Shown one piece after another: positions 20,002 to 63,513 of a stretch of DNA of 64,000 nucleotides (its first letter is position 1; each line of letters begins with the position of its first letter). The notes beneath the pieces are model-generated. The model was given only the letters and a program-made list of their open reading frames with translations. It was not told where the DNA came from and ran no database searches. The stretch spans positions 4,382 to 68,381 of the forward strand of contig CAWGLD010000004.1 in NCBI GenBank assembly GCA_963823335.1, given 5' to 3'. The position numbers were made by a program, and so were the translations under genes. Source of the stretch: an uncultured delta proteobacterium (GTDB lineage: Bacteria; Desulfobacterota; Desulfobacteria; Desulfobacterales; B30-G6).

Positions 20002-20040
20002 GGGTTCAAGGGTCCGAGGGTGATACAAGGGTTCGAGGGT
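20002..20040 (+). repeat. G-tract module, family A copy 2
   Basis: Begins 5 nt after the stop at 19997. Five GGG runs. Confidence 0.85.
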
Positions 20041-20060
20041 GTGTTCTGGGGGAGGGTGAT

Positions 20061-20084
20061 GTAGCGCGGCGCTTTAGCGCTGCA
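20061..20084. repeat. GTAGCGC...GCGCTGCA hairpin module (family F)
   Basis: GTAGCGCGGCGCTTTAGCGCTGCA. A related module, GTAGCGCAGGTCTTCAGACCTGC...CTGCGCTAG, lies at 49340-49380. Confidence 0.6.
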
Positions 20085-20095
20085 TTACTCGTTTT

Positions 20096-20140
20096 CATTC
20101 GATGTTGGATGTTCAGCGTTCGATGTTGGACGTTCATCTT
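20096..20140 (+). repeat. Solo arm of palindrome family D (TCGATGTTGGACGT words)
   Basis: CATTCGATGTTGGATGTTCAGCGTTCGATGTTGGACGTTCATCTT matches the right arm of the complete palindrome at 63474-63513. Confidence 0.8.
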
Positions 20141-20197
20141 CATGATATCATGACAGAAGGCCCTGTCTTCTTTCTCGGACTGATTCCGCCAGAAAAA

Positions 20198-24298: not shown

Positions 24299-24387
24299 GC
24301 CTGGGTGGCGGAATAGGTAGACGCAAGGGACTTAAAATCCCTCGGCCCTTAGTGGCTGTACGAGTTCAATTCTCGTCCCGGGCACCA
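24299..24387 (+). tRNA. tRNA-Leu (anticodon UAA), long variable arm, CCA encoded
   Basis: GCCTGGGTGGCGGAATAGGTAGACGCAAGGGACTTAAAATCCCTCGGCCCTTAGTGGCTGTACGAGTTCAATTCTCGTCCCGGGCACCA. Cloverleaf drawn by hand. TTGACA lies about 45 nt upstream. Confidence 0.9.
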
Positions 24388-24636
24388 TGATATCAAGGGG
24401 TTAGCCGACATGCTGGCCCTTTTTTCTTTAGGTGTTGACTTGAATTTACACAATCGTATTTGTCCAGATTGTCCCACCGATGAACAGTTGTATCACCCAA
24501 AAGTGTTTGCACTGACATAATTCAAACCGTAGGTTTAATGATAAAAACTGACCTTGCGCGGCAAGCTTCAAATCTTTAGTTTGCCACAATTCTTTAGCGA
24601 TAACGTAATATTACTCTGGCCTGATTATGCTTTCCA

Positions 24637-24735
24637 TAAATATTCCGGTAGCCGGTGTGCGAAAATAATCACAACTGGTCAAAGCTTGTATTCATAGGCC
24701 CCTCCGTGGTACGCTGGGCATGACCAGATGGTATC
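24637..24735 (+). repeat. Direct repeat R1 (partner R2 at 27610-27701)
   Basis: Two identical 20-mers (CCGGTGTGCGAAAATAATCA and GGGCATGACCAGATGGTATC) bracket a 49-nt core. The core has the same length as in R2 but is diverged. Confidence 0.8.
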
Positions 24736-24840
24736 AGCTTGATAAATGGGCATCTCCATTTATCACCACTTGGCATAATCTTGTAATACTGGCAAGTAAT
24801 CTCAGGTTTGATAATCTATTTTGTATCGTAGGATCTGTTT

Positions 24841-25278
24841 ATGAAAATTACCTATATATTTTTTGGATCTGTTTATGGGATTTTTATCTTATTTGTCAGT
24901 ATTGGCAGTGCAGCCAATTACACATTTACCTGTGACAAACCCCATCGAAATGACAATGTAATTGGATACAAGGTCTATTACAGGTTGAATTCCGGTACAT
25001 ACGATGGAGAATTTGAGCGGTGTCAAACTACCGATCCGAAATTTGATCGTGTTAAACATACTGGAAAATCGATTTGCCGGATGTTGCTGAAGAATACTGT
25101 TTTGCCGCTACAGCTTGGGAGCTGATGATTTCGAAAGCAATCCTTCCTAATGAAATTGGCTACGGTACGACCTGCGGTCAAATAAATTACGTAACAATCG
25201 GTGGAGCATGGTGGTGGCGATGGAGGCGGCGGCGGTGGTGGTGGTGGATGTTTTATTGGGGCGATGGAAGTGGAATGA
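24841..25278 (+). pseudogene. FN3-like secreted protein, multiply frameshifted paralogue of 25291-25731
   Basis: The signal peptide and Y.F.CD..H.ND.V.GY.VYYR align to the downstream copy. The LPDV.EEYCF..TA, NEIG.GTTCGQI and Gly-run+CFI segments are found in three different frames. Confidence 0.7.
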
Positions 25279-25290
25279 TAAAGGACGATT

Positions 25291-25731
25291 ATGAAAATTG
25301 CCTTTATGTTTATTGTATCCGTTCTGGGATTATGTATCTTTTCCGTCAATGTAGGTCGTACAGGCGAATACCACTTTGTCTGGGATCCACACCCCAATGA
25401 CCAGGTTGTTGAATTTAGGATCTATTACAGGATTAATTCCAGTCTTTACAATAAGACAGATTTTGAACCGGTGCAAATTAGCAATCCGAAATATAATCCA
25501 ACCAAGCCAGACTGGATATTAGTATTGCCGGATGTTACTGAAGAATACTGTTTTACCGTTACAGCGGTCGACGATAATGGTTATGAAAGTCATCATTCCA
25601 ATGAAATAGGCATGGGCACGACATGCGGTCAAATAGTTAATGATGGCAGTGTAAATGATGGTAGGAGCGGAGGTGGCAGATGTTTTATTTTACAGGGCAT
25701 TCTACATGACAAACGATGGGATTCTTATTAA
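25291..25731 (+). CDS. FN3-like secreted protein, C-terminally truncated right after a GGG(R)CFI motif
   Basis: Signal peptide. An FN3-like EYCFTVTAVDDNGYESHHSNE strand pattern. A Gly-rich linker followed by CFI, then unrelated sequence. Confidence 0.6.
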   Translation: MKIAFMFIVSVLGLCIFSVNVGRTGEYHFVWDPHPNDQVVEFRIYYRINSSLYNKTDFEPVQISNPKYNPTKPDWILVLPDVTEEYCFTVTAVDDNGYESHHSNEIGMGTTCGQIVNDGSVNDGRSGGGRCFILQGILHDKRWDSY

Positions 25732-26273: not shown

Positions 26274-26810
26274 ATGACATCACTCACAGACCGAATGATT
26301 CGGGCAGCAAAACTGGATACAAGCCTTTATGAAGAGGTCGAAGCGGATAAAGAGGCCATGGGACAAGCCATGACAGTTGTTATTCTTTCCAGTGCTGCAG
26401 CAGGAATCGGAACTATCGGTGCAGCAGGGCTGAAGGGTCTTATTTTCGGAACCATAGCTGCTCTTGCAGGCTGGTTTATCTGGGCGTATTTGACATATGC
26501 TATTGGGACAAAGTTATTAGCTGAGCCACAAACAAAAGCAGACTATGGGGAATTACTGCGTACTATCGGTTTCTCCAGCTCTCCTGGAGTGCTTCGTATT
26601 TTTAGTATCATTCCCATGCTTGGGAACATCCTAAATTTGATTTGCGGTATCTGGATGCTGGTAGCGATGGTCATTGCCGTAAGACAAGCACTTGACTATA
26701 AAAGTACTTGGCGGTCAGTTGCTGTTTGCCTTATTGGTTTTATTGTTCAACTAATTGTTTTTGGTTTGTTTTTTCGGTTGGTAGGGGGATTCGGACCTTC
26801 ACAACCATAG
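26274..26810 (+). CDS. Yip1-domain membrane protein
   Basis: ATG 26274 follows GGGAGGA. The N-terminal MIRAAKLD..LYEEVE is followed by 4-5 TM helices, typical of bacterial Yip1-like proteins. Confidence 0.7.
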   Translation: MTSLTDRMIRAAKLDTSLYEEVEADKEAMGQAMTVVILSSAAAGIGTIGAAGLKGLIFGTIAALAGWFIWAYLTYAIGTKLLAEPQTKADYGELLRTIGFSSSPGVLRIFSIIPMLGNILNLICGIWMLVAMVIAVRQALDYKSTWRSVAVCLIGFIVQLIVFGLFFRLVGGFGPSQP

Positions 26811-26903
26811 TTTATATTTTAGGCTTTTCTCCCGATTTGTTGTAGAAATGCTGTTGGTGGAAGCCTTGTCGAAATCGGGATCGCTATCGGGATCGGGATC
26901 GAG

Positions 26904-27299
26904 ATGGTATTAGGTCATGAAAAATTAGACGTTTACCGCCTTTCAATCGGCTATGTCGCATGGGTTTATGAAAAGTGTGCCAGGCTGAGAGGCGTCCATC
27001 GTTCAGCAAGAGACCAGTGGCTTCGAGCCAGCCAGTCGATTGCGCTTAATATTGCAGAAGGCAACGGTAAGACAGCGAAGGCTGATCGGCGGCGATATTT
27101 CGAAATAGCGCGTGGGTCGGCATTGGAGTGTGCCGCAATCCAAGATGTCTTGGTAGTCGGAAAAGGTTTGGATAAAGTAGAAAGCCGGCAGCGCAAAGGT
27201 GAATTGGACCGCATTGCTGCAATGCTTAGTCGATTGGGCGGCAGGGGTTATAGCGTAAAGGAAGGGTTCGGGGAATACGGCTATACTGAACGGCAATAG
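26904..27299 (+). CDS. Four-helix-bundle protein (23S rRNA intervening-sequence protein / Avd-like family)
   Basis: KLDVYRLS...QWLRASQSIALNIAEGNGK...RRYFEIARGSALECAA, the family signature recalled for PF05635/TIGR02436-type proteins. Confidence 0.9.
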   Translation: MVLGHEKLDVYRLSIGYVAWVYEKCARLRGVHRSARDQWLRASQSIALNIAEGNGKTAKADRRRYFEIARGSALECAAIQDVLVVGKGLDKVESRQRKGELDRIAAMLSRLGGRGYSVKEGFGEYGYTERQ

Positions 27300-27403
27300 C
27301 GAGCGCATTCCCCGTAGCTTGCTGCGGGGTTAGCGAGCGAATCAAATAGATAAAATCCTTACCGCGAAGATTCCCTGCAGCTTGCTGCAGGGTACTCTTC
27401 AAT
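27298..27403 (-). repeat. Palindromic module family E, copy E2 (inverted relative to E3/E4)
   Basis: The reverse complement reads ATTGAAGAGTACCCTGCAGCAAGCTGCAGGGAAT...TTCGCTCGCTAACCCCGCAGCAAGCTACGGGGAATGCGCTCGCT. Confidence 0.8.
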
Positions 27404-27609
27404 TCGATCCCGATCCCGATCCCGATAGCGATTTCGATAAGATATAGCCCGAGCTGTATTTCTCTTGACCCGAATTTTGGAGCCCTTTCCTCCAACTAAA
27501 TTGGGAGAAGATCCATATTTTATTCCCGCATTATAATAGATATCTCCTAATTTCCGAGATCTCAATAGAATGCGATACAGCTCCAACAAAACAAGGTTAA
27601 CAGACCCCT

Positions 27610-27701: not shown

Positions 27702-27910
27702 GGTAATAATTTTCTTGACATTGCCCGGAGCCCATAATATTTAAATTTTAATGTCGTGCTCATCTGAAGCTCAATCTCACCTCCAATGCGACCTACATCT
27801 TCTAGCTCTAATTTCGCTAATTTAATTCTGCATCGTACCGCACTTTCTGAACCTCTCCGCTAAAGTAGATAACGGTTTCTCGCATTTTTTTACCTAATAA
27901 TCAGGTGAGG

Positions 27911-28055
27911 ATTGAAGAACCTCGCAGCAAGCTACGAGGAATGTTCTGCTGTGCGACAGTGCTTCGCAGCGACCGTAAGGAATTCTGTCTAATTTAGATT
28001 CGCTCGCTAACCCCGCAGTAGGCTACGGGGAATGCGCTCGCTGTTGCGGTTCAAT
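27911..28055 (+). repeat. Palindromic module family E, copy E3 (full length)
   Basis: Three hairpins: CCTCG-CAGCAAGCTA-CGAGG, CTGCTG-TG-CGACAG and CCCCG-CAGTAGGCTA-CGGGG. Nearly identical to 41357-41525. Confidence 0.85.
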
Positions 28056-28084
28056 AAACCGTAAACGAGAGGTGAATAGACAAT

Positions 28085-28430: not shown

Positions 28431-28762
28431 GGATCATCTCCCAAAGAGTTGATCCAAATTAAGGATTCAAGGATTCCAGGGGCCCAGGGGTCGAGTGAGA
28501 TGAAGTGAGGTGCCAGCTAAATGCTTAAGAATTATAAAGAGTTAAATGTCTGGAAAAAAGCGTATAAACTTTGTTTGGATAAACGATGATATCCGGTGAT
28601 TTGGATTATATGAACAAGGAAAAGCTTCAGGGTTTAAGAGAGGCGCTTGGGAATGTAGAGAGAATGCTAAAAGCCATGATCACATCCCTGGAAAACAAAC
28701 ACTTGAATCCTTGAATCCTGGATTCCTTGAACCCTTTCTCCCAACTTATTGGGAGAAGATCC
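28431..28762 (+). mobile_element. Cassette copy C1: 4HB pseudogene with internal deletion, full termini
   Basis: GGATCATCTCCCAAAGAGTTGATCC...TCTCCCAACTTATTGGGAGAAGATCC. Remnants MLKNYKELNVWKKAYKLCLDKR* and, out of frame, GDLDYMNKEKLQGLREALGNVERMLKAMITSLENKHLNP*. Confidence 0.75.
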
Positions 28763-31910: not shown

Positions 31911-32834
31911 CTAAAAACGTGAGATGTGAGACGTAAGACGTGAGACGGGGAGCAGAGGGTATGTCGTCAAAACATCAATTTGATGAATCAGGTAATCAGA
32001 AAAAAAAGCGTCAGACCAAAGACTCAACTTATCTTGATGCGCTACATTCCTCAAGAATGGCTCAACGTCTTTTTTGGCCAGATCGAAATCAATCTCCTTG
32101 ATCTTGGCAGACAGCAGTTCAAGCAGTTTTTCTCTGGTCAACGCCTCGGAGGTATCAATATGACCTGTTTGCACCATCTTGTTTTTAAGAAATCCCAGAT
32201 CACATGGGGTATTGTTTTTCACAAACCAAACTAAATCATACCAATCCCGGCCCTTGATGTTGGTTCTCACGGTTCGGCACAATAGTGCATGCATTTTGCC
32301 GGCAAGCAGACAGGGCAGTGTCATGGTTTTAATGGTAAACGGAATCGGATTCAGATGATATTTGGTGTCACTGGCAAACCCTGTGACCGGATCTTGATCA
32401 ATTTCCAATTTGATCTTCATCACGGCATTTTTATGGGTTTTCAGATTTGAATCAATTTTTAATAAATGGATCAGTGTATTGGCTTTTATAAAAGCCGAGT
32501 CTACCGTGCTTTTATTCTTTTTGTTGATTTCTTCTGTGGAAACCTCAAAACCCCACAACGCCAGCTCTGATTTTACCGCTTCAAGATACTTTTTAAGGTT
32601 GAAGTCCTTTTCCGGCTGAATTAGAGAAAAATCTACATCCTCGGAGAAACGATCCAACTTGTGAAGAATTCGTAATGCGCTTCCCCCGTAAAAAACAGCT
32701 TTTTCATAAAATTTTGAACGCCATAAACCAAGCAGAATGATCTCCTGTATGATCTCTTTCAACGCATTTTCATGATCATGAATTGTGTGCAATTCATACC
32801 TGCGGAGCATTTGATCAACCTTATCATCAAACAT
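31911..32834 (-). CDS. AbiEii/AbiGii-family nucleotidyltransferase toxin (type IV TA / abortive infection)
   Basis: FYGGSALRILHKLDRFSEDVDFSL (the NTase motif of DUF1814). 8-nt overlap with the upstream antitoxin. The last roughly 12 codons run into a CGTGAGA word repeat. Confidence 0.85.
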   Translation of the reverse strand: MFDDKVDQMLRRYELHTIHDHENALKEIIQEIILLGLWRSKFYEKAVFYGGSALRILHKLDRFSEDVDFSLIQPEKDFNLKKYLEAVKSELALWGFEVSTEEINKKNKSTVDSAFIKANTLIHLLKIDSNLKTHKNAVMKIKLEIDQDPVTGFASDTKYHLNPIPFTIKTMTLPCLLAGKMHALLCRTVRTNIKGRDWYDLVWFVKNNTPCDLGFLKNKMVQTGHIDTSEALTREKLLELLSAKIKEIDFDLAKKDVEPFLRNVAHQDKLSLWSDAFFSDYLIHQIDVLTTYPLLPVSRLTSHISRF

Positions 32835-37085: not shown

Positions 37086-37096
37086 GTGGCAAATAA

Positions 37097-37135: not shown

Positions 37136-37140
37136 GGCTG

Positions 37141-37405: not shown

Positions 37406-37463
37406 ACAAGCGGACAGCAGCATCCCAGCTTCCCAGCAGTCTAGCTTCCCAGCATAAAAAGGC

Positions 37464-50452: not shown

Positions 50453-50495
50453 CAGCTACCCTCCAAACCTCAGACCCTCCAACCCTCTGTTTCTA

Positions 50496-51536: not shown

Positions 51537-51596
51537 GTTTTTTGGTGTTTGGTGTTTGGTGTTTTGTGTCTGGTGTTTTGTGTTTGGTGTTTGTTT
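51537..51596. repeat. GGTGTTT/GTGTTTT word array in the spacer between the megasynthase and oleA
   Basis: TTTGGTGTTTGGTGTTTGGTGTTTTGTGTCTGGTGTTTTGTGTTTGGTGTTTG. Followed at 51635-51655 by CAGCATCCCGGCTTCCCGGCC, a near copy of 37418-37438. Confidence 0.8.
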
Positions 51597-51677
51597 TAGG
51601 GCTAAACGCATCAATGATGACATCGAGCTGTAATCAGCATCCCGGCTTCCCGGCCTTATAGCCTCATGGCCTCCCAG

Positions 51678-54600
51678 CTATCTGTCAAGCGGGACCAGCC
51701 CGATGGAAAATTGTTCCATATGATAGATGGGCAGCCCGTCGACTGTCAACAGGCCATCGGCGGTGAGCACGGGAAATGGCTCTTCCACCACGTTTGTCAC
51801 CAGGGCAAGAAGCTCGATATGCCTGTTTTCTGGTGTGATTTGTCCACGATAGGTCCATCGATGACGGATATCCGATTTCAAGGTAAAGCAGTGATCGTCC
51901 CCCAGATGCGGCCATCGATCCAGGGCCATGAATTTCAGCACTTGTATCAGAGACTCCAGACCCAGCGACCCCGGGCAGACCGGATCACCCAGAAAATGAG
52001 CCTTGAAAAACCATTCCTTGGGCAGAACTTTTTTGGAGGCCCGGATGATACCGTATCCATGGGGTCCGCCTTCCGGGAAATAGGCCTCGATGTTATCGAT
52101 CATGCGTATGGCCCGTCCCGGCAACACCGCATTTTCATGGACATGACCGGATAAATCGTCCGGTGCCGTGGGTGTATGATCCACCATCGCTGTCTGCCTG
52201 TTGGTCACCGAATCCTCAGGCAGGGTATAGCGAGACATATCGATCTGATGCAATCCTACCTGCGCTGCGAGAGCTTCCTGGGTAAAAAAACCGAAATGTG
52301 TCTGCCCCTGATAAATCTTCTGCCCGGATTGTAATATCTGGAAATCAAAGTGCTCGATAATCATGTCACCGGCTTCAGACACCTGGGTCAGACGCGCTCG
52401 CGTGGTCAGGGGTCCTTTTTTTGCAGGCACATCCCTGCATAGTTCAGCAATACCACCCAGATTTCTGAATCTGAGATCTTTTTCACTTTGTAAGGCCGAA
52501 CCCAGGTATGCCGCCAGCCAGCCGCAGGGCTGAAGCGCAATTTCATTCAAAACGCAAAATGGCATAACAGGTGTACGGTTGGCCCTGAAAAACCAGTCAC
52601 CCGGGTCGATATCCACCTCGGACTCGATCCAATCACCGGGTTTTAATACCCAGGGCTCCGGTGCAACGTCAACCACCCGGTCCATGAAAAGATAGGGCGG
52701 TCTGGGCAACCTGGCAATGAAGCGCTGTTTGTCAAATACCTGATAGGGTTTTCCAAATGCTATAGAGGGTCTGCCGAACGAGAATTCCTCCAGCAGTTTC
52801 CGACTGAATGTTCTTGTACCGTTCTCTTTTTTTTCGGAAGGGTAGCGTTTTTCTGTGGTGATCTGCTGTGGGCCGATTTTCCAAATGCGTTCGATCTCTT
52901 CACGCGTGCCCTGGGTCAGTTTCATGGAAATACTGTCAAAATAAACAATGTACGACCCATCGGCGGTCATGTGGGCATCGGCAATCGCATATGGCTCCGG
53001 GTCATAGCCCATCTCTTTGATGTCGATTTCATATACAACATGTCGGGTGTTCGGTGTTACCGGTCCACGGCATTTCAGCACACTTTCAACCCCCACAACC
53101 GGTTCATAGCAGGCGCTTTCATTTTCACTGATCCATCCGATACGTTGCAGAAATATCCGCAATGTGTGTGCACAGCATTCGTACATGAGCGTGCCCGGCA
53201 TGACCATGTCATCGACGAAATGACAGGTCAGGTACCAATCGTCCGGATGAATATCCGCTTCGGCACGTATCAAGCCCTTACCAAAGGTCCCTCCATAGGG
53301 GTCGAATGTGAGAACACGATCGATGAGGTGCATGCGCCCGCCCGGCAGCCACAGAGAAGAAGCGATGCTTTTACCCTGAAACGCAGTACCAAATGCGTCC
53401 CCGAGTCGGCCTGACCTCAGGGCATCCAGGGCGGCCTCGGAAAATGTTTCAATTGTTACCGGGGCCGGATGCCGCCACTCAGCACCAAAATCTTCTTGCC
53501 TGCGAGTTCCATCCATCTTTTTAGCGACAATACCCCCGGAATTCCGCACCTCCTCCTCGGTAAAGAAGCCTGCACAGCCGTTTTTCATCTGAATGAACAG
53601 GTTGTCTTCGATAAACCCTTTGAATTTAAAGAAGAAAAGGTGCGTGTCTCCCTGACGGATAAATTTTTCGATCTCGATGTCGTAGCGAATCGTCTCGCCC
53701 GGCTGTGGCAGTCCCCTGAAAAACGTCACACAGGCATCCAGCAACCGATAGGTTCTGCGGCCCTTGACCACATGATCGATCCCCAGATACGAACTGAGGA
53801 ACAAATCTGCCTGACCAGCCTCCACCGAGATACAGGCAGGCGCGCGGTTACCATCCAGATACCAGGCCTCTGGAAGAACATCGTGTTCGGTCACAATCCG
53901 GCCAGTGCCCAGAGAACACTTTTCACCCACAAGGGAAACAACCCGATCCACGAGCATGAGGGGTTCGTCCGGAAGCCGCACCCGGGCCTGGTAGGTGTCG
54001 ACCACCTGGAATTCAGGACCGAATACCTCGGCCACAGATCCTGTAGCAAAAGTCAGACAGTCTTTCCTGGAATAAAGCGGGGTAACCCCTGATGAGGTCT
54101 GGTGCGTCCCGGGGCCTTTGGCAATGACCCCGGTTTTACGGATCTGCTTCATATGACCGGACAGGAGCTGGGCCTGCAGTGCCATGGCCTCCTGGTAGCC
54201 CTTTGTCATCTGGCTGGAAAATTCCAGGAACTGCTTGTGTGTTTCGGTGGTTGTCTGGGCATTTTCCTGAACAGACCGCATGAGGTCCCGGACTATCTGG
54301 CTGGAGACACTTTCGTGCAGCGGCCCTGAAATGGAATCCCTCCCCAACGGACGCTCGTTGGGTTCATGGATTTTCGATTTTTCCCCAGCTGAAATGCGTG
54401 AATCAATATGGCCCGGCAGTAAAGGTGGCGGCCCGGGGAAGGGCAGGGGAGCACCGACACGCAGATGGATTTGACGCGATGATTCTTTTTTGGATCCGGT
54501 TGCCGGTCCTGACAATGTATCATCATATACCTGATTCATTTCAGGAGGATACGAAAGACCTCCATATAATTTGTCGAGATGGACACCCACTTTTGCTGCG

Positions 54601-57600
54601 CTGAGCGCGCCCAACAGCTTCAATATTGAAAGGTATTCGTTGTCTTGGCTTGAACTGACAGCCAAAGCAAGATGGGGGCGACCTTCGAGCGTCTGCCCTA
54701 TCATTCGTGTGCAGGATGCCCGGGGTCCCATTTCGACAAAAACACGGATACCATCGTCATAGGCCTGTTCAATGGTGCGGGTAAAGTCGAACCCGTTGCG
54801 TGCCTGATCCAGTATGGATGCAGCAGCGTTTTCACTGGTCAGGTCATATGTATGGCCCCATGCACAACTGTAAAAACGCATAGTTGCGGATATGTCAGTG
54901 GGGTACAGATGAAGTTGGCGGTAAGCCTCCTCCACAGGTCTGAGCGCATCACAGTGAACCGTCACGACACCGTCAAGGGGAACGGCGTTACACCCCAGCA
55001 TTTTGACGACCTTCCAGATTGATTCTTTCTCGCCGCCTAACACCGATTCCCTGGGTGAATTAATGATCAGCAGACGGGTCATGGGAAATTGTTTAACAAC
55101 AGACATGACCTCGTCTGCCGCCCGATCAACCGCAACCACCTGCCATTCAAATCGTTTTTCAGGTTCGATGTTCCACGCCTTCCGGAGGGATAGACAGGGC
55201 CCGGTCAAGTCTGTCTTGAACAATGGTGATTCGAGCATCCGTTTCAAAAGCCGGTCTTGACCTTTCCAGACACCCATGGCAACCAAGCCAGCGGTTTCCC
55301 CGAGGCTGTACCCGATGACCGCCCTGGGTGGCGCCATGAACTGCTGCATCAGTCTGGCCGTGACAACCCCGTGCATTACCTGCCCGAAAATCGCCAACAG
55401 CGGATCGGCATGGATCCGATGCAAGGCCTGTATTTCCCATTGGTTTTCCCAGGACATCCGATAAGGCACAAAGCATTCGGGAATCATTTGCCTTTTCAAT
55501 TGCCCGGTTTCTGCATCCACCTGACCTATAAGCAATGGCCATTGGACCCCCATGTCCCGTCCCATACCAAGATAATGGTTTCCGGAGCCAGGAAAAACAA
55601 AGGCAATGCCGGCCGACTCCCCCAGGGGCTCGGGTGTGTAAAAGATGTTTGCATGCCCCGGAGAAGCGTCTGTCTTCCCTGAAGAAACGAGCTGTTTGGC
55701 TCTAAGAATCATGTTTTCGGCATCGTGAATATCTTTGACCACCAGGCTGAGCGCTCTTTTCTTACCCGGGGGTCTAGGTCTCTTATTTTCGTACCAGACC
55801 CGCGCGAGCCACTCCAGGGGTACGTCCATGGAATCCCATTTCCGGATCTGTTTCCAAAGGGTTTCCAGACCATCTAAAATCTCCTGGTCATGATCGCCTT
55901 CCACGACAAAAAGACCGCTGGACTGGTATCCCAGAGGGCGAAGTTTTTCCTGAACGAATCCAGGGGGCGATACCATCCCGGGGTCTTCATACCCTTCCAG
56001 AAGGACATGCATGCAGTTTCCATCGGACGTCATGGCACCCACACAGGCCCGGCGAGGATTGGTTTCCCGATCCCGATACCAGTACTGAGGTTTGATGGGA
56101 ACATGAAAACGTTCTTCCCATGCGATATCTCCGGGCCGTCGATAATCCGGCATGGGTGGTAAAAGGGCATGGTAAAGACACAGGCTTGTTTTCACAAGGG
56201 AAGACAAGCCTGATGCGGCACCCATGTGTCCCACAATCGCTTTGGTGCTGCTGACGGCGCAATGCAAGCCCTTTTCGGTCAAAACGGTATTCAATACCTT
56301 TGATTCCACGACATCTTCGGTAGGAATACCGCTTCCGTGTGCCTCATAGAGGCTGATATCCGACGACCCCACACGAGCATCCTGAATGGCACGCTCCAGG
56401 GAAACTTGGTATGCTTCCTGTGTTACGCCCCCACCTTCCGTCGCCATCCCACTGGCAGCGCCGAAGCCATTGACAATCGCATAAATACGATCTTTTTCCG
56501 CAATGGCGTCTTCCAGGCGTTTGAGCACCAGTGCCAGGCCGCCTTCTCCGGGAAGCGTCCCCTTAGCAGATGAATCAAAGGGCAATACAGGCGCTGTCTC
56601 GGAACAGGGTCGGGTCTGATGGTGTGTGGCCAGATATCTGATATCTCCGGTAAAATCCACAGCACCCACCAGCATCATGTCTGTGTCATTGTCCTGCAAG
56701 GCCCGGACACCTATTTCGAGGGCTTTGATACCGGAAGCTTCTTCGCAGGAGACAACAAAACTGGGCCCACCCAACAGAAATTCCTTGGCAATCCGGCTTG
56801 CAATGACACTGGTCAATGCACCCAGAGTCCGGTTGGATGTCAACGGTCGGCTTATAGAAGCTTTCAGGGAACGGACCCACTGGGCGGCATGGGGGTCCTG
56901 AAGGTTCAAGCCATATTTTTTTTCCCATCGGCGGATGCTTTCATTCACGATCCATCTTAAATGAAAATTGGTGGCCTCAAAGTCAAAATCCGCTCCCACC
57001 ATCACGCCCATGCGTGTCCGTTTCTCCCTGAGGGCAACACCGGCATCGATGAGAGCGTTTCGACAGAGCTTCATCATGAGCAGATGCTGCGGCAGAATAT
57101 CCGGTATTTCATTGGGGGGAACGTGAAACAGACCCATATCCAGGGCAACATCTTCCATGAACGCACCGTGTTCCGGAACCACCTGCCGGAAATAGGTATC
57201 CGGTCCGATTTGTGTGCCCCGAAGACGAGAGTGATGTTCGATGATGGATTGCCCCTTGAAAACAGCCTCCTGAAAAGCCCTCAGGGTCGACAGTTTCCCC
57301 ATGGCAGCGCTCATTCCGATAATCGCCACCAGGGGTTTTTCACTTGTCGATGTTTTAGAATAACCGTCTTCATCACCGTTCCCGGGGACAGCGTGATGTT
57401 GCAGATTTATGGTACCTCCAGCTCGCCTATTGGGACGGGTCCATTCTTCCAGAAGCATGTGGGCATTGATACCGCCGAATCCAAATGCGCTCACAGCGGC
57501 ACGACGGGGGGTGTCGGCATCTCGTAGACCCCAGTCGGTCACTTCGGTCTGGACCCTAAAAGGACTGTCGATCAAAGGACTGTTATCTGTCGGCTCCGAA

Positions 57601-58817
57601 TAGTTGTTTGATGGCGGTATGTTTTTATGTTTTAATGCAAGTAATACTTTAAGTGTTCCGGCTGCCCCGGCACCTGTTAGCAGATGCCCGATAGTAGCTT
57701 TGACCGAGCCGATGGGACAGACACCGGCATGGGTTGCAATGCCCTGCCACAGGGTTGCGAGACTGCTCAGTTCGGTATGATCCCCAAGGGGTGTGCCTGC
57801 CCCGTGGCATTCAATCAGGTCGACCTGATCCGGTGTCCACCCGGTGGTGTCATAGGCCATGCGCATGGCCCTTACCTGGCCTTCGCTCTTGGGCGCCAGG
57901 AGACTACCCCCCATATCGTTGGAAAGCCCGATGCTTTTGATGACCGCCAGTATATTGTCCTGGTCCCTTACAGCATCCTTCACCCGTTTCAGCACAAACA
58001 TGCCGGCACCTTCCCCGACAACCAAACCATCCGCAGATTTGTCAAAAGGTGCGCAACGACCCGACGGTGACAACGCGCGAAGCTGGGAGAACCCAACCTG
58101 CGTGTAAAGGCAGTCAGGCCGGGAGACCCCCCCCACCAACATGGCATCTGCCCTGTGTTGTGCCAGGGCATCGCAGGCAAGTTTGAATGCCACCAGCGAT
58201 GATGCACAGGCCGCATCCAGGGTATATGTACCGTTTCCGAGACCAAGGCCTTTGGCCAGCAACGCTGCTGGAAAACCGGTCATTTTGCCGGCCAGGCACT
58301 GGTTTCTGGTCAAAACCGACGCAATATCCCGGATCATGGGATCAAATAATCGTTTTTCGAGATAAGCCCCCAGAATTTTCTCCGCAACCAAAGAGGAAGC
58401 CTGCGTAGGAAGGGCGATGGCGGCCAGAATCACACCGGTTCGTTTCCGGTCGATGAATTCATGCCTGGCAGTGTAAAAAGCCTCTCTACCTGCGTGCAGC
58501 ACGATTCGGTGAAGTGGGTCAAGATCACGAACCAGGTCCTGGTCAAGATCCATATTGTCAAAACAGTAGTCGATATCCCGGTTCAGAAGGCAGGCTATCC
58601 TGGATATGGCTTTGTCGGGCCGCAGTTTATCTGCGGTCATCACAGCAGGGCCAACCCGCCAACGATCTTTTCCAACCACCTGGCAGGCATCTCTTTTATG
58701 AAGCAGATTATCCCAGAAGACATCCAGGGTGGTCGCGCCGGGTAAGAGTCCGGCCATACTGACAATGGCGATATTGTATGGCCGGGATGTTTGCATATAT
58801 TTGGTATCTTTCTGCAT
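51678..58817 (-). CDS. PUFA-synthase-type megasynthase, PfaC/Pfa3-like: KS - CLF(KS-like, Cys replaced) - AT - 2x FabA-like DH; no ACP, KR or ER recognised
   Basis: KS motifs DAACASS, ECHGAGT, KATIGHLLTGAG. Second KS-like domain has VSCEEASG at the active-site position. AT has GYSLGE. DH motifs are HFVDDMVMPGTLMYE and HFLGDPVCPGSLGLE. 2379 aa. Confidence 0.85.
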   Translation of the reverse strand: MQKDTKYMQTSRPYNIAIVSMAGLLPGATTLDVFWDNLLHKRDACQVVGKDRWRVGPAVMTADKLRPDKAISRIACLLNRDIDYCFDNMDLDQDLVRDLDPLHRIVLHAGREAFYTARHEFIDRKRTGVILAAIALPTQASSLVAEKILGAYLEKRLFDPMIRDIASVLTRNQCLAGKMTGFPAALLAKGLGLGNGTYTLDAACASSLVAFKLACDALAQHRADAMLVGGVSRPDCLYTQVGFSQLRALSPSGRCAPFDKSADGLVVGEGAGMFVLKRVKDAVRDQDNILAVIKSIGLSNDMGGSLLAPKSEGQVRAMRMAYDTTGWTPDQVDLIECHGAGTPLGDHTELSSLATLWQGIATHAGVCPIGSVKATIGHLLTGAGAAGTLKVLLALKHKNIPPSNNYSEPTDNSPLIDSPFRVQTEVTDWGLRDADTPRRAAVSAFGFGGINAHMLLEEWTRPNRRAGGTINLQHHAVPGNGDEDGYSKTSTSEKPLVAIIGMSAAMGKLSTLRAFQEAVFKGQSIIEHHSRLRGTQIGPDTYFRQVVPEHGAFMEDVALDMGLFHVPPNEIPDILPQHLLMMKLCRNALIDAGVALREKRTRMGVMVGADFDFEATNFHLRWIVNESIRRWEKKYGLNLQDPHAAQWVRSLKASISRPLTSNRTLGALTSVIASRIAKEFLLGGPSFVVSCEEASGIKALEIGVRALQDNDTDMMLVGAVDFTGDIRYLATHHQTRPCSETAPVLPFDSSAKGTLPGEGGLALVLKRLEDAIAEKDRIYAIVNGFGAASGMATEGGGVTQEAYQVSLERAIQDARVGSSDISLYEAHGSGIPTEDVVESKVLNTVLTEKGLHCAVSSTKAIVGHMGAASGLSSLVKTSLCLYHALLPPMPDYRRPGDIAWEERFHVPIKPQYWYRDRETNPRRACVGAMTSDGNCMHVLLEGYEDPGMVSPPGFVQEKLRPLGYQSSGLFVVEGDHDQEILDGLETLWKQIRKWDSMDVPLEWLARVWYENKRPRPPGKKRALSLVVKDIHDAENMILRAKQLVSSGKTDASPGHANIFYTPEPLGESAGIAFVFPGSGNHYLGMGRDMGVQWPLLIGQVDAETGQLKRQMIPECFVPYRMSWENQWEIQALHRIHADPLLAIFGQVMHGVVTARLMQQFMAPPRAVIGYSLGETAGLVAMGVWKGQDRLLKRMLESPLFKTDLTGPCLSLRKAWNIEPEKRFEWQVVAVDRAADEVMSVVKQFPMTRLLIINSPRESVLGGEKESIWKVVKMLGCNAVPLDGVVTVHCDALRPVEEAYRQLHLYPTDISATMRFYSCAWGHTYDLTSENAAASILDQARNGFDFTRTIEQAYDDGIRVFVEMGPRASCTRMIGQTLEGRPHLALAVSSSQDNEYLSILKLLGALSAAKVGVHLDKLYGGLSYPPEMNQVYDDTLSGPATGSKKESSRQIHLRVGAPLPFPGPPPLLPGHIDSRISAGEKSKIHEPNERPLGRDSISGPLHESVSSQIVRDLMRSVQENAQTTTETHKQFLEFSSQMTKGYQEAMALQAQLLSGHMKQIRKTGVIAKGPGTHQTSSGVTPLYSRKDCLTFATGSVAEVFGPEFQVVDTYQARVRLPDEPLMLVDRVVSLVGEKCSLGTGRIVTEHDVLPEAWYLDGNRAPACISVEAGQADLFLSSYLGIDHVVKGRRTYRLLDACVTFFRGLPQPGETIRYDIEIEKFIRQGDTHLFFFKFKGFIEDNLFIQMKNGCAGFFTEEEVRNSGGIVAKKMDGTRRQEDFGAEWRHPAPVTIETFSEAALDALRSGRLGDAFGTAFQGKSIASSLWLPGGRMHLIDRVLTFDPYGGTFGKGLIRAEADIHPDDWYLTCHFVDDMVMPGTLMYECCAHTLRIFLQRIGWISENESACYEPVVGVESVLKCRGPVTPNTRHVVYEIDIKEMGYDPEPYAIADAHMTADGSYIVYFDSISMKLTQGTREEIERIWKIGPQQITTEKRYPSEKKENGTRTFSRKLLEEFSFGRPSIAFGKPYQVFDKQRFIARLPRPPYLFMDRVVDVAPEPWVLKPGDWIESEVDIDPGDWFFRANRTPVMPFCVLNEIALQPCGWLAAYLGSALQSEKDLRFRNLGGIAELCRDVPAKKGPLTTRARLTQVSEAGDMIIEHFDFQILQSGQKIYQGQTHFGFFTQEALAAQVGLHQIDMSRYTLPEDSVTNRQTAMVDHTPTAPDDLSGHVHENAVLPGRAIRMIDNIEAYFPEGGPHGYGIIRASKKVLPKEWFFKAHFLGDPVCPGSLGLESLIQVLKFMALDRWPHLGDDHCFTLKSDIRHRWTYRGQITPENRHIELLALVTNVVEEPFPVLTADGLLTVDGLPIYHMEQFSIGLVPLDR

Positions 58818-59695: not shown

Positions 59696-60106
59696 ATGGA
59701 CTACGCCTACCAACGACTGGACATCTGGAAAAAGGCGGTCGATCTTTCCATCAAGGTCATTCAATGTATCGCCGAAGTGGCCAATGAGGTTGAAACACAG
59801 CGCCTTACCGAGGAAATCGAAATGAGTGCCGTCAATATTGCCACAAACATCGCCAAGGGAAAAGCCTGTTTGTCGGAGGAGGATTTCATTTATTATCTGT
59901 TTTTGTCAAAAAGATCACTGTATGAAACCATGACACTGCTGGAAATTCTCAAAGCCAAACAGTTGATTACCGACGAGTGCTACATGGAAATCGAAACAAA
60001 AGGAAAAAACATCACTGGAATGCTGATTGAATTTATCCGCTCAGTCAAAGAAACCGGCAGCCCCTATCAGGCAGAAAACTACCAGGCTGCTTACAGAAAC
60101 CGATAG
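59696..60106 (+). CDS. Four-helix-bundle protein (divergent 23S-IVS-protein/Avd-like), copy a
   Basis: RLDIWKKAVDLSIKV...SAVNIATNIAKGK...FLSKRSLYETMTLLEIL. AAGGAGAG RBS before ATG 59696 (the track start at 59627 is less likely). Confidence 0.8.
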   Translation: MDYAYQRLDIWKKAVDLSIKVIQCIAEVANEVETQRLTEEIEMSAVNIATNIAKGKACLSEEDFIYYLFLSKRSLYETMTLLEILKAKQLITDECYMEIETKGKNITGMLIEFIRSVKETGSPYQAENYQAAYRNR

Positions 60107-60121
60107 AACAAAAGGAGATAA

Positions 60122-60514
60122 ATGATGACCTATATCTATGAAAAGCTCGACGTCTGGCAAAAAGCCATGCAGTTTGCCGGGGATGTCATTGATTCCATGT
60201 CGATGATGAACAGCAAAGACTACCATCAAGAGATTTTAGAGAAAACAGAAGGGAGTGCAGCCGGTATCGCCGGCGCCATTGCCATGGGAAAATCCTACAG
60301 TTCAAAACACGATTTCGCCAGACATCTGTATCATTCCAGGGGCGCCTTGTACGAAACCATGACTCTGTTGGAGTTGTTGAAACGTAAACGCCTCGTTGCC
60401 GAAGATAAATTTGCTGATTTCGACACCAGGGCAAACCAACTGACCGCCATGCTGACCGCCCTGATTAAATCGATTTACACACCCAAATCGGACAATGGCA
60501 AACAATCATCATAA
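60122..60514 (+). CDS. Four-helix-bundle protein, copy b (paralogue of copy a)
   Basis: KLDVWQKAMQFAGDV...GAIAMGKSYSSKHDFARHLYHSRGALYETMTLLELL. AAGGAGA RBS. Confidence 0.8.
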   Translation: MMTYIYEKLDVWQKAMQFAGDVIDSMSMMNSKDYHQEILEKTEGSAAGIAGAIAMGKSYSSKHDFARHLYHSRGALYETMTLLELLKRKRLVAEDKFADFDTRANQLTAMLTALIKSIYTPKSDNGKQSS

Positions 60515-61157
60515 GCGTCAACCTCCTGAGATGAGGCTGATAATTTCAGTCGATTACAGAGAAAGGCCTTCCGGACTTCCCGATCTTCTGGTTGATGCAG
60601 GATTTGAGGTGGCTATAGTCAAGCTCCCTTATTGTGACTACATAATTAACCATGGAATATCCATCGAAAGAAAAACCGGCAGGGATTTCGCTATCTCAAT
60701 CATCGACGGCAGACTATTTAAACAGGCCAGTTGGATGCGAAAGCGAACCAATCGGCCTGTTTTTCTCCTGGAAGGAAGTCCGTTTCATGTCGATGTGGAC
60801 ATACATAAGAAGGCGATTAAGGGCGCAATGCTTTCTATACAAGTCGCATGGAGCATCCCCATCATTTATTCTCGATCTATGGAGGAAACATGCAATATTT
60901 TCAGAACACTGGCAACCCAGCAGGAAAACCAGACCGAACGCCTGGAACTCAGGCACGGTTTTCGATCCAAACGGATGATCTCAAAACGGTTGTATCTTCT
61001 ACAAGGGCTTCCAAATATTGGTCCGGTTATGGCTCTGAGATTGATCAGACATTTTAAAACAGTCCACCGTGTTATGAACGCCAGTATCGATGAATTAACG
61101 GAAGTGGATGGCATTGGGGAAGATACTGCTGATAAGATCCAGGAAATTCTCCGGTAA
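60495..61157 (+). CDS. ERCC4-domain (XPF/Mus81/Hef-type) nuclease with C-terminal (HhH)2
   Basis: VDYRE...CDYII...ISIERKTGRDFAISIIDGRLFKQ...PVFLLEG. The HhH segment is LQGLPNIGPVMALRL...EVDGIGEDTADKI. Overlaps 4HB-b by 20 nt (alternative ATG at 60531). Confidence 0.9.
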   Translation: MANNHHKRQPPEMRLIISVDYRERPSGLPDLLVDAGFEVAIVKLPYCDYIINHGISIERKTGRDFAISIIDGRLFKQASWMRKRTNRPVFLLEGSPFHVDVDIHKKAIKGAMLSIQVAWSIPIIYSRSMEETCNIFRTLATQQENQTERLELRHGFRSKRMISKRLYLLQGLPNIGPVMALRLIRHFKTVHRVMNASIDELTEVDGIGEDTADKIQEILR

Positions 61158-61248: not shown

Positions 61249-61477
61249 GGATTGACAATCCCCGTCAAAGATGTTCATATCCTGAACGCATATTTTTACT
61301 CTATCCAGACAATCCAATCAGCAGCATCAAAAAGGTTATTTTTGTTGCCCGTGTAACCCACCCGGCGGAGCTATGAGAAAGCCCAGTATCACGCGTCCTA
61401 TTTTCCGAACATTATTATGACAAGCGGTATAAAGCGGCCAAGCCGCGCAGAATAAATTTGCGGAGCATAATTTATCG

Positions 61478-62059
61478 ATGAATCACCAAGATATCCGAAC
61501 CCTGAAAATTCTTGAAGAAATCGAGAAGGGCTCCCGATTGAGCCAGCGCTCCCTGGCAAAGCATCTCAATGTTTCTCTGGGCTTGGTAAACTCACAATTA
61601 AAACGCCTGGCTGACAGAAGCTTTTACACGGTTGGCAGCATACCGAAAAACCGGATCACGTATATTCTAACGCCGAAAGGTATTGAAGAAAAAAACCGGC
61701 TCACCTATGAGTATATTCAGTTCTCTTTGCAATATTATATAGATATACGTCATAAAATAAAGCGTACCCTCAACAAATTGGTAGATGACGGCACGCACAG
61801 TATCATATTTTACGGCACCAGCGACCTGGCAGAAATTACCTATGTCTCACTCCAGCAAACACCGCTGAAATTCAAAGCACTGGTGGATCATGATCATAAA
61901 GGCAACCTGTTTTTTGGTCATCGCATCCAATCATTTGATGCGCTCGACATTATAAACTTCGATAAAATCCTGATCACCGCCTTTTCCACCACGGAAAATC
62001 CCGTGGATGTATTGATGAAAAAGAATGTTCACAAGGATAAGATCATTTTGATCACATAA
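61478..62059 (+). CDS. Winged-helix (MarR/Rrf2-like) regulator with C-terminal alpha/beta domain
   Basis: N-terminal LKILEEIEKGSRLSQRSLAKHLNVSLGLVNSQLKRL. The C-terminal half is unassigned. Confidence 0.55.
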   Translation: MNHQDIRTLKILEEIEKGSRLSQRSLAKHLNVSLGLVNSQLKRLADRSFYTVGSIPKNRITYILTPKGIEEKNRLTYEYIQFSLQYYIDIRHKIKRTLNKLVDDGTHSIIFYGTSDLAEITYVSLQQTPLKFKALVDHDHKGNLFFGHRIQSFDALDIINFDKILITAFSTTENPVDVLMKKNVHKDKIILIT

Positions 62060-62068
62060 TGAGGGCCT

Positions 62069-63316
62069 ATGAATTCAGATAGAGAGAAACTCAATCAGCT
62101 GATACAAAAAGGCGTTGCTATTCCCAACCCTGATAGCGTCGAAATCGGTGAGGATGTCAAGGTCGAAAACATATCCGGTGACGGCGTCACGATTCATTCA
62201 GGGTGTCGCCTGTTTGGAAAATCGACCCTTATCATGGGTCAGACCCAGATCGGATATGAAGCCCCTGTTACCATCCAGGACTGCCAGCTCGGTCCTCGCG
62301 TCACCCTCAAAGGGGGGTTTTTCAAAGAATCTGTTTTCCTGGAAAAGACCAGTGCCGGAAGTGGCTCGCATGTCAGGGAAGGGTGTGTTTTTGAAGAAGA
62401 GGCCAGTATTGCCCATACCGTAGGTCTCAAACAAACCATTCTGTTTCCTTTCGTTACCCTTGGCAGCCTGATAAATTTCTGTGACTGCCTCATGGCAGGG
62501 GGCACCAGTAGAATAGATCACAGTGAGGTTGGCAGTGCCTACATTCATTTCAATTTTACCCCCAACCAGGACAAGGCAACAGCCTCTCTTGTGGGTGATG
62601 TGCCGAGAGGGGTCATGCTTGATCAACCGCCGATTTTTCTGGGAGGGCAGGGGGGTCTGGTAGGACCCAGCCGCCTGTCCTTCGGGACAGTCATTGTAGC
62701 CGGCACCATATTTCGCAAAGATGTAACCAGGCCCGGGAGAATGATCTTCGAAGGTGCCGGAAAAGGAGGCGATGTCCCTTTTGTTCCCGGACTCTACCGA
62801 GGCATCAAGCGCATCGTGGTGAACAACATCCTTTATATCGGAAACCTCATCTCTCTCCTGCATTGGTATCAACACGTGCGATCTCTTTTTATTTCAGATA
62901 ATTTCCCGCATACACTCCAGGCAGCCGCCATGGAAAAATTGAAGTTTATCATCCAGGAACGCATCCAGCGATTACGTCAGCTGATAGAAAAAATGCCCTT
63001 ATCCATTCAAAAATACAAGGATATGTATCGCATGGATGCCGGTGCAAAAATCGTGATTCAGCAAAAAGAACTGCTTGCAAAACGGAGCGCCATCATCGAC
63101 TGCCTGCTTTCCATGGAGGCGTATCCGGGAGACACCGCCCTGCGCGATCAATTTTTGGGCCGCGCGGTAAACACTTCGCAGGACAATGGCAAAAATTACA
63201 TCAAGACGGTCCAGGCCCTTGATCCCAAAGTAAAACAGACGGGAAGCGACTGGCTCCAGGGAATTGTGGATAAGACCCTTTCCGAGGTGTTGGAGATTCT
63301 GCCGTGTTTTCGTTAG
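62069..63316 (+). CDS. Left-handed beta-helix (hexapeptide-repeat) protein, GlmU-C-terminal-like, with helical C-terminal extension
   Basis: Repeating [LIV]-G-x4 pattern between about aa 20 and 240. Located just upstream of glmM. Confidence 0.55.
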   Translation: MNSDREKLNQLIQKGVAIPNPDSVEIGEDVKVENISGDGVTIHSGCRLFGKSTLIMGQTQIGYEAPVTIQDCQLGPRVTLKGGFFKESVFLEKTSAGSGSHVREGCVFEEEASIAHTVGLKQTILFPFVTLGSLINFCDCLMAGGTSRIDHSEVGSAYIHFNFTPNQDKATASLVGDVPRGVMLDQPPIFLGGQGGLVGPSRLSFGTVIVAGTIFRKDVTRPGRMIFEGAGKGGDVPFVPGLYRGIKRIVVNNILYIGNLISLLHWYQHVRSLFISDNFPHTLQAAAMEKLKFIIQERIQRLRQLIEKMPLSIQKYKDMYRMDAGAKIVIQQKELLAKRSAIIDCLLSMEAYPGDTALRDQFLGRAVNTSQDNGKNYIKTVQALDPKVKQTGSDWLQGIVDKTLSEVLEILPCFR

Positions 63317-63381
63317 ACGATGTTTTGAAACCACATGCAGAATTTCTTACAGCGCTAAATTGTTTTAATGCTGGGAACCAA

Positions 63382-63513
63382 ATGAACATCGAACATCGAA
63401 CGTCCAACATTGAATTTTGAATTTAAAAAGATGAAGAAACAGAAATATTTCGATATTGGTTTTTTTGTTTCCATTCGACATTGGACGTTCGATGTTCGAT
63501 GTTGGACGTTCAT
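63382..63513. repeat. Complete palindrome of family D (arms of TCGATGT/TGGACGT words, about 59-nt loop)
   Basis: The left arm ATGAACATCGAACATCGAACGTCCAACATTGAA and the right arm TTCGACATTGGACGTTCGATGTTCGATGTTGGACGTTCAT share a 23-nt perfect complementary core. Confidence 0.85.

Follow-up and report, generated by a model that had tools for sequence, protein, structure and literature searches.

Inverted arrays of lineage-specific tandem words enclose four-helix-bundle protein genes in a Desulfobacterales genome and in many other phyla

A 64,000-nt stretch of genome from an uncultured delta proteobacterium (Desulfobacterota, Desulfobacterales, B30-G6; GenBank assembly GCA_963823335.1, contig CAWGLD010000004.1, positions 4,382 to 68,381 of the forward strand), referred to here as the window, carries genes and gene remnants of the four-helix-bundle (4HB) protein family PF05635/TIGR02436 that lie between arrays of short tandem words. 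Analysis of the window and of homologous loci revealed that, in each element, inverted arrays of a lineage word bracket the stretch from the ribosome-binding site to the final codons of a PF05635 gene; the words are GAT-NNN hexamers in the lineage termed hb1 and AAGGRKTC octamers in a second lineage termed C-type. Taking the two lineages together, this architecture was found in about 155 loci from many phyla. With a probability of about 50%, the paired arrays are the arms of hairpin elements of the intervening sequence (IVS) type, each with an open reading frame (ORF) inside, whose stems, on transcripts, RNase III would cut. The remaining arrays, which an earlier inspection of the letters alone (the sequence-only reading) had listed together with the arms, are stand-alone hairpins without an ORF, of the GAACATC and ATATCGA types, or unpaired leader and trailer arrays.

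The hb1 element of the window occupies 26809–27514 on the plus strand and comprises outer pairing segments, two arms and a 4HB ORF (26904–27299), which matched PF05635 and TIGR02436, annotated as "four helix bundle protein" (Pfam E = 1.3e-18; NCBIfam E = 3.4e-17). The left arm, located by Tandem Repeats Finder (TRF), inverted-repeat search and alignment, is a period-6 array (GAAATC/GGGATC/GCTATC)n that runs up to the start codon (26865–26905). The right arm (27401–27447), a (GATCCC/GATAGC/GATTTC)n array recognized by translation, by the tails of homologues and by TRF, is the ancestral C-terminal tail of the protein, FDPDPDPDSDFDKI*. This tail can still be read at 27403–27447, cut off from the ORF by a hairpin-rich insertion of 112 nt (27289–27400) that lies at the junction of the loop and the right arm and truncates the ORF to 131 aa. 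The insertion is absent, near position 4067, from the contig of a sister strain (L165; L-numbers denote retrieved loci and P-numbers homologous proteins), which is 99.2–99.7% identical and encodes an intact hb1 protein of 143 aa. The two arms, given as GATCGG arrays in the sequence-only reading, are 87% complementary (26865–26902 with 27404–27441). To score arm pairing, one flank was locally aligned with the reverse-complemented opposite flank, shuffled sequences serving as controls, and the hb1 arms reached 51 against a shuffle maximum of 20. In addition, an intact hb1 relative was predicted to fold as a single closed hairpin. On the right, the element carries a terminal hairpin or terminal inverted repeat motif, CCTTTCCTCCAAC-TAA-ATTGGGAGAAGATCC (27480–27514, plus strand; direct-repeat family D7), which is common to three C-type cassettes of the window, C1–C3.

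Homologues of the hb1 protein were detectable in 7645 cases, the best 120 at 78–98% identity, and some database records call them "bAvd family". Eighty genome loci were retrieved from Desulfobacterota, Verrucomicrobiota, Kiritimatiellia, Acidobacteriota, Planctomycetota, Gammaproteobacteria, Nitrospirota, Zixibacteria and others, and the 5′ flank was complementary to the 3′ coding end in 76 of them, from about 15 phyla. The homologues end in tails of the D-x-D-x type (FDPDPDSDFD, DFDTDFDFDPED and DADFDSDFD), which result from in-frame translation of the right arm (GAT CCC GAT AGC GAT TTC), and the reverse complement of the tail-coding array sits just 5′ of the ribosome-binding site. Moreover, both arms had switched together in distant members with 57–60% identity: L075 and L080 carry CTCGTACTCGTA and GAGTACGAGTAC (GAGTAC/GTACTC) with the tail EYEYEY, L069 carries CTCGTGCTCGTG and GAGCACGAGCAC (GAGCAC/GTGCTC) with the tail EHEHEH, and L070 has the word GATTAC with the tail DYDSD. 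The word vocabularies of 56 hb1 loci showed a cosine similarity of 0.66 between cognate arms vs. 0.43 between non-cognate arms, a value that none of 10,000 permutations reached and to which relatedness among the loci contributes. Furthermore, the duplex of cognate flanks was better than that of control segments in 55 of 67 loci, with a median of −45 vs. −35 kcal/mol (p = 1e-7). The arm turnover that had been envisaged among relatives was also observed, in the form of whole-unit changes; of P0001 and P0002, each 98% identical to the hb1 protein of the window, P0002 has an extra GGGATC unit on the left and a CCC-to-AGC swap in a tail word. As these comparisons showed, arms evolve in steps of whole words, which are gained, lost or replaced.

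The same architecture was found in the C-type lineage. The query for this lineage was a composite in which N- and C-terminal fragments from the window were joined by an artificial filler; only the natural proteins retrieved with it were used, and identity values to the composite carry no information on the window. The metagenome scan was made with the C-type family alone, so that the architecture covers two lineages and their sub-lineages. Among 79 C-type metagenome loci (63–85% identity), about 70 had period-8 arms, the left arms being built from the vocabulary [ACG]AGG[AG][TG]TC and the right arms from its complement. In many loci, the left arm stops 2–4 nt short of the ATG, and the right arm often begins 13–15 nt before the stop. 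The relatives carry PF05635 and share a uniform C-terminus, KSLENKHLNP*, and proteins called from upstream starts begin with MKGSRGQGFKESSEM-, that is, with a translated left arm. The cognate duplex was at −54 kcal/mol vs. −33 and −25 kcal/mol for controls and was better in 49 of 52 loci. Outer hairpins as in the window copies were present in L084 and L126, the left one reading TGGATCATCTCC-AAAGAGTTGATC and the right one CTTTCTCCCAAC-TAA-TTGGGAGAAGAACC. Across 309 kb of loci, which are a biased sample, word arrays were 14 times denser beside 4HB genes than elsewhere.

Within the window, alignment to the full-length metagenomic cassette L126 identified the AAGGATTC cassettes C1–C3, all on the plus strand, as internally deleted copies of the C-type lineage. 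C1 (28429–28765) comprises a left terminal hairpin, a left arm (28461–28497), ORF remnants, a right arm (28702–28736) and a right terminal hairpin, with an internal deletion of 178 nt relative to L126. Only 12 N-terminal and 5 C-terminal codons remain in C2 (33909–34178), the right terminal hairpin of which carries an insertion of about 70 nt. C3 (34257–34450) is the same deletion derivative, 96% identical to C2, and the larger deletion common to both has its junction inside an 8-nt direct repeat, CTGGAAAA. The arms pair at 28461–28480/28702–28736 in C1, 33944–33977/34046–34079 in C2 and 34290–34316/34393–34427 in C3, with pairing scores of 32 for C1 and 33 for C3 against shuffle maxima of 26 and 23, respectively. 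C3 was predicted to fold into three hairpins (z = −5.6 vs. shuffles). A second composite element of the same type (42683–42930, plus strand; direct-repeat families D3, D4 and D6) has the C-type left terminal hairpin motif at its start. As these alignments show, such deletion derivatives persist as hairpins similar to miniature inverted-repeat transposable elements (MITEs).

The arrays of the window were evaluated against chance. Arrays with a period of 6–9 were detected with TRF, overlapping rows were merged, and 100 dinucleotide-preserving shuffles of the window served as the chance level. At a score of at least 30, 21 arrays were found vs. 4.0 ± 1.9 in shuffles (about 5-fold), and at a score of at least 40, 11 arrays vs. 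0.06 (about 180-fold). Fifteen of the 21 lie outside ORFs of at least 100 aa, in DNA that makes up 18% of the window, and the strong arrays that overlap ORFs do so at ORF extremities (31917–31947, 51541–51593 and 63487–63511, the last inside a doubtful ORF). By TRF and sequence inspection, every array of the sequence-only reading is present where it had been placed or a few bases away. The proposal made there that tandem-word arms flank 4HB ORFs or remnants holds for the paired arrays, and different cassette families were indeed found to have different words. Replication slippage between genes, which would have left functionless arrays unrelated to the ORFs, is scarcely credible as their origin: strong arrays exceed shuffles about 180-fold, about 155 loci of many phyla show the same architecture and word core, and cognate flanks pair far better than control segments. 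Slippage is contradicted for the paired arms by these results; it is possible only for the weakest solo arrays, and some listed arrays are indeed weak, such as the GCAAGCA array at 49402–49425 (score 34) and that at 37418–37455 (only 66% matches in TRF), or unpaired.

The PF05635 family takes its name from the ORF of the IVS of 23S rRNA. A gene of this family within a terminal-repeat stem is thus already known from these IVS, and the earlier remark that no described element class has this property was too strong. IVS with an S23p ORF occur in Coxiella burnetii, Leptospira, Xanthomonas and Brucella and are regarded as selfish or possibly mobile (PMC4990558). The gene of the Coxiella IVS lies in a 28-bp terminal-repeat stem that is cut by RNase III, and two to three tandem GACAGAT heptamers, the number of which varies among strains, stand in the 5′ part beside the start codon (PMC4990558). 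Like these IVS, which are known here by their published description, the cassettes have a PF05635 gene, an enclosing inverted-repeat stem of about 20–30 bp or more and variable tandem units. Unlike in the IVS, both arms consist wholly of tandem words, the word is lineage-specific and conserved, and one arm is translated. The cassette 4HB protein is under strong purifying selection (dN/dS, 0.06 in hb1 and 0.10 in C-type; dS is saturated, about 1.7–2), whereas the Coxiella ORF is decaying.

If the paired arrays act as the stems of such elements, the arms would zip on a read-through transcript, in any of several registers, into a helix of 30–45 bp that closes exactly around the ORF. By analogy with the homologous 23S rRNA elements, RNase III would cut this helix; such cleavage has been shown for the rRNA IVS (PMC4990558) and is extended to the cassettes by that analogy. 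The cut would release the element from the transcript of its host and would control how much 4HB protein is made. Stem cleavage in hb1 members would take away the stop codon, and in the C-type lineage, the purine-rich words (AAGGA, GAGG) resemble Shine-Dalgarno sequences and could be masked by the right arm; the stem would therefore be well placed to gate expression. With tandem words, the pairing would withstand shifts of register and indels of units, and a single arm alone would be unstructured.

Several observations weigh against this hairpin reading, in which the arms would pair as RNA. Unlike the 23S rRNA IVS, the cassettes lie between protein-coding ORFs and not in helix 25 or 45, and none is in rRNA according to Rfam. 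Two tandem, intact 4HB ORFs of the window (59696–60106 and 60125–60514, plus strand; Pfam E = 8.8e-20 and 3.5e-18) have no arms around them, with scores at shuffle level. Co-orientation with neighbouring genes, in 50 of 66 and 47 of 70 cases, was significant but is typical of bacterial genes, and the lengths of strictly periodic runs on the left and right, a crude measure, were uncorrelated. G·U-type mismatches were not enriched over A·C mismatches in hb1 (41 vs. 51) or in C-type arms (78 vs. 59, p = 0.12); with no G·U bias in either lineage, the mismatch test cannot separate RNA from DNA pairing. Moreover, the lineage word core is kept in the non-coding left arm of 47 of 61 C-type and 53 of 70 hb1 loci, compared with 1 and 3 loci for controls taken 200 nt further out, where a pure stem model allows drift. 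The retention of the core despite saturated dS contradicts the claim of the sequence-only reading that arm sequences are unrelated and that selection acts on the stem regardless of its sequence. Word order was not mirrored between arms either, the score being 0.626 vs. 0.654 ± 0.014 after order shuffling for C-type and 0.696 vs. 0.706 ± 0.010 for hb1. Selection is therefore not on a precise stem, and a precisely co-varying stem was rejected for both lineages. The conserved feature is the lineage word array on either side, in opposite orientation, and the constant word core alone guarantees extensive pairing in several registers.

The same observations bear on a different explanation, in which the arrays are inverted subterminal binding sites for a sequence-specific factor, either the 4HB pentamer or an unlinked transposase. 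The word would serve this factor as an address, either in mobility (on DNA) or in autoregulation (on RNA), and the complementarity of the arms would be a by-product of their orientation. This explanation fits the sequence conservation and the unmirrored word order at least as well as the stem model does. It is also favoured by the conservation of the core in non-coding arms despite saturated dS, by the missing G·U excess, by the word that each 4HB lineage has of its own and by the fixed ends of the elements across different contexts. In addition, the closest solved relative of the hb1 4HB protein, XCC0516 (PDB 2GSC, five chains deposited), which matched the C-type protein with E = 3.5e-27 and the hb1 protein with E = 4.4e-6, is a homopentameric toroid, as cited in PMC4990558. 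The arrays comprise about 4–8 units. On the other side, no transposase or integrase was found among the window ORFs scanned near the cassettes, the conservation of the hb1 word is partly explained by its coding for the D-x tail, and the hairpin at 63382–63513, with 23 perfect pairs that include variant words, fits true pairing. 4HB proteins are not known to have catalytic or sequence-specific binding activity, which also counts against binding sites, and we judge this explanation to be somewhat unlikely.

Comparison of copies showed that a gene and its arms form a single unit in both inheritance and horizontal spread. At 97–98% identity and with unchanged ends (about 26809/26828 to 27514), the hb1 element recurs in the unrelated flanks of L049 and L001. 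A terminal motif, GGATC(A/T)TCTCCCAA / TTGGGAGAAGATCC, also written GGATC(A/T)TCTCCC(A/G)A / TTGGGAGAAGATCC, is present in C1–C3, where the element at 42683 has its left end and where the window hb1 element has its right end, and it also marks the left end of the L001 copy of hb1. Two MITE-like features, terminal inverted repeats and multiple copies per genome, are present, and no consistent target-site duplication was found in the flank comparisons (L049 and L001 copies, L165). Over 3 kb, the window and L165 differ in length by two small inserts only, of 112 nt and 38 nt. The 112-nt insert is related (about 87%, opposite strand) to a dispersed repeat at 27910–28056 and 41356–41524. The 38-nt insert, AAGGATGAAAATATTGATGAGAATGATGGCTATTTTCA, occurs at this locus in the sister strain only, in the loop of the hb1 right terminal hairpin (site 27496; L165 about 4159–4216), is also found within the right terminal hairpin of C2 in the window (34114–34174), and appears to be a nested mobile insert of very small size. 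It follows that movement of small hairpin elements continues in this lineage, with loops or stem junctions as landing sites.

Such strain-polymorphic inserts in the hairpin loop and stem junction would also fit a scenario in which the elements are repetitive extragenic palindromes (REP/REPIN) or IS200-type DNA hairpins, moved in trans in single-stranded form by an unlinked Y1 transposase like the REP-associated tyrosine transposase (RAYT), with the ORF-less hairpin as the basic unit and the 4HB gene as a passenger in the loop. Many ORF-less tandem-word hairpins, some of them in high copy on one contig, the symmetric mismatch classes and the lack of a clear target-site duplication agree with this idea, and the elements resemble REP/REPIN sequences (PMC3116915) in being short palindromic intergenic hairpin repeats that are nested, clustered and near gene ends. 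Unlike REP/REPIN–RAYT systems (PMC3116915), they have periodic arms and, in one subset, a conserved gene in the loop, and no RAYT was seen among the ORFs scanned, which are part of those in the window. Moreover, arm type follows the 4HB lineage from phylum to phylum and the protein is under strong purifying selection, unlike a random passenger, and the arms abut translation signals in two unrelated lineages. A passenger gene in transposase-driven hairpins is rather improbable.

Similar comparisons were made with other known systems. The Correia/NEMIS MITE hairpins of Neisseria, for which RNase III cleavage of adjacent-gene transcripts has been proposed, are likewise small, multi-copy intergenic hairpins with terminal inverted repeats and long-stem transcripts (PMC2229807), and C2, C3 and the ORF-less hairpins behave as non-autonomous derivatives in the same way. 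Unlike in the Neisseria MITEs, the arms of the elements studied here are arrays of tandem 6–8-nt words, the full-length version encodes a 4HB protein and not a transposase, and there is no clear target-site duplication. Matches to PF05635/PF22296 place the cassette protein in the same fold family as bAvd of diversity-generating retroelements. A retroelement of this kind was rejected because no reverse transcriptase was found; the ORFs scanned beside the cassettes (neighbours were Yip1, small unknown ORFs and an ERCC4 nuclease) included neither a reverse transcriptase nor a template or variable repeat. Avd genes are not known to lie within tandem-word stems. Furthermore, the full-text literature searched, which lacks most subscription journals, yielded no description of free-standing 4HB genes in lineage-specific tandem-word arms or of a translated D-x tail.

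On a broader view, PF05635 genes and their lineage word arrays may form a widespread class of autonomous hairpin elements, with the rRNA IVS as a special case, in which the pentamer reads the word as an address that controls processing or mobility and in which ORF-less hairpins and solo arrays are non-autonomous derivatives; this combined proposal is doubtful. The origin, mobility and function of the 23S rRNA IVS and of the S23p/Avd-like ORF have been questions since the early 1990s, and PF05635 proteins are among the commonest "hypothetical" small proteins of environmental bacteria. If free-standing genes of this family are systematically wrapped in word arrays, they would make up a defined unit of arms, gene and terminal hairpins with a simple search signature, and culturable carriers such as Pelovirga terrestris M08fum (L011), Thiorhodococcus mannitoliphagus DSM 18266 (L054) and Kiritimatiellaeota B1221 (L045) would be at hand for work on RNase III and on the 4HB protein. 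Such wrapping would also explain the variable low-complexity heads and tails produced by gene callers, and it may explain the frequent recovery of these genes on short contigs.

Two types of hairpin in the window have arms of tandem words and no ORF. The first, at 63382–63513 on the plus strand, was identified by TRF, inverted-repeat search and folding and has (GAACATC)n and (GATGTTC)n arms with a loop of 40–57 nt. Its predicted fold contains 23 consecutive perfect base pairs (z = −7.3 vs. shuffles), and its pairing score was 47 vs. a shuffle maximum of 22. A solo right arm of this type (20096–20140, plus strand; direct-repeat family D11) is 84% identical to 63467–63527, and further hairpins of this type were found in L032 (Lentisphaerae), L126 and viral contigs. 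In 64 viral-contig stretches, 10 paired hairpins with loops of 29–148 nt were present, none with a 4HB gene inside, and PF05635 was absent from the best 120 of 280 proteins that translate GAACATC-type arrays. The hairpin at 63382–63513 was therefore rejected as the footprint of a 4HB cassette (0/10 and 0/120), and the TCGATGT/GAACATC word, which had been taken for a cassette arm, was never seen around a 4HB gene in the data examined. One 40-kb "viral" contig, IMGVR_UViG_3300012347_000612 (L170, L181, L200, L226 and L230), carries more than 10 GAACATC-type arrays or hairpins with similar CT-rich loops, suggesting that this hairpin is a high-copy repeat in the genome from which the contig derives.

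The second type is the ATATCGAA hairpin at 37202–37338 (plus strand; TRF, sequence and alignment), in which (GAATATC/CAATATC)n faces TTCGACATTCGATATT with a pairing score of 27 vs. a shuffle maximum of 22. Another ORF-less copy of this ATATCGA type lies at 42775–42905, and related sequences are at 38484–38526 and 39455–39484. No Rfam family covers the hairpins, the only Rfam matches in the window being two tRNAs. The words at 26865–26905, 37202–37227 and 63382–63414 (ATCGNN of hb1, ATCGAAT and ATCGAAC) have an ATCGAA/TTCGAT core in common at a spacing of 6, 7 or 7–8, whether by relatedness or by chance.

The other arrays of the window are unpaired, and four or five of them are leader or trailer repeats. 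No complementary partner was found near those at 31917, 51541, 37418, 51635, 49402, 7817, 20001, 37096 and 20096, and the words GGTGTTT, CGTGAGA, CTTCCCRGC and GCAAGCA, proposed earlier as cassette arms, proved to form unpaired arrays beside start or stop codons. An (AAACACC) × 7.6 leader on the minus strand (51541–51593) is separated by 4 nt from the ATG (51536) of a FabH-like gene that has no Shine-Dalgarno sequence, and it is not an arm. Tandem 7-nt intergenic words are also known from the short tandemly repeated repetitive (STRR) sequences of cyanobacteria. As unpaired heptamers placed just before a start codon without a Shine-Dalgarno sequence, the (AAACACC)n units resemble the TAACTGA leaders of Beggiatoaceae, cyanobacteria and Bacteroidetes (PMC4679880). 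The paired arms are unlike those leaders, which are direct repeats without an inverted partner and for which no link to 4HB genes is reported in PMC4679880. Also on the minus strand, a (TCTCACG) × 4.4 array (31917–31947) makes up the last 12 codons of the AbiEii ORF, a (GCTGGGAA)n array of the form GCYGGGAA (37418–37455) begins 9 nt past the stop of a radical-SAM gene, and a second GCYGGGAA array (51635–51655) follows the stop of a 2379-aa ORF (51678–58817, minus strand).

Several solo arrays use the C-type vocabulary. A plus-strand array at 20001–20041, assigned to direct-repeat family D9, starts 4 nt past the stop of the T2SSE gene, and further D9 arrays on the same strand start just past stop codons at about 7817/7821–7861 and at 37096–37136. 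The GGGTTCAA/GGGTCCGA arrays that had been read as a separate word (7817, 20002 and 37097), each beginning 2–10 nt past a stop codon, are partnerless C-type left-arm arrays, because their words match the AAGGATTC left-arm vocabulary [ACG]AGG[AG][TG]TC of the 79 C-type loci. Several supposedly different words thus belong to one family. The five solo octamer arrays, that is, these three and the minus-strand arrays at 37418–37455 and 51635–51655, begin within 2–25 nt of the stops of five different genes, and each is oriented in the sense direction of the gene that precedes it. In addition, a solo (ACCCTCAA)n array of the C-type right-arm type (50458–50487, plus strand; TRF and sequence) lies in the spacer of two minus-strand genes. 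Short GC-rich hairpins that follow TGTAGCGC adjoin word arrays at 20060–20085 (GTAGCGCGGCGCTTTAGCGCTGC) and 49338–49362 (GTAGCGCAGGTCTTCAGACCTGC) and may be another small repeat family.

An ERCC4-HhH nuclease gene (60495–61157) directly follows the two armless tandem 4HB genes, with a 20-nt overlap, and may form an operon with them. A tRNA gene (24299–24384) borders a stretch of lower GC content (about 24–36 kb) that contains cassettes and the AbiEii/AbiEi pair. The 1.1 kb directly after this tRNA gene (24429–25529) has a different sequence in the sister strain L165, and the stretch looks like a tRNA-adjacent variable island. At 25057–25184 and 25508–25635, three co-linear direct repeats with a spacing of 451 nt and 83–85% identity show that an unannotated segment was duplicated locally in tandem.

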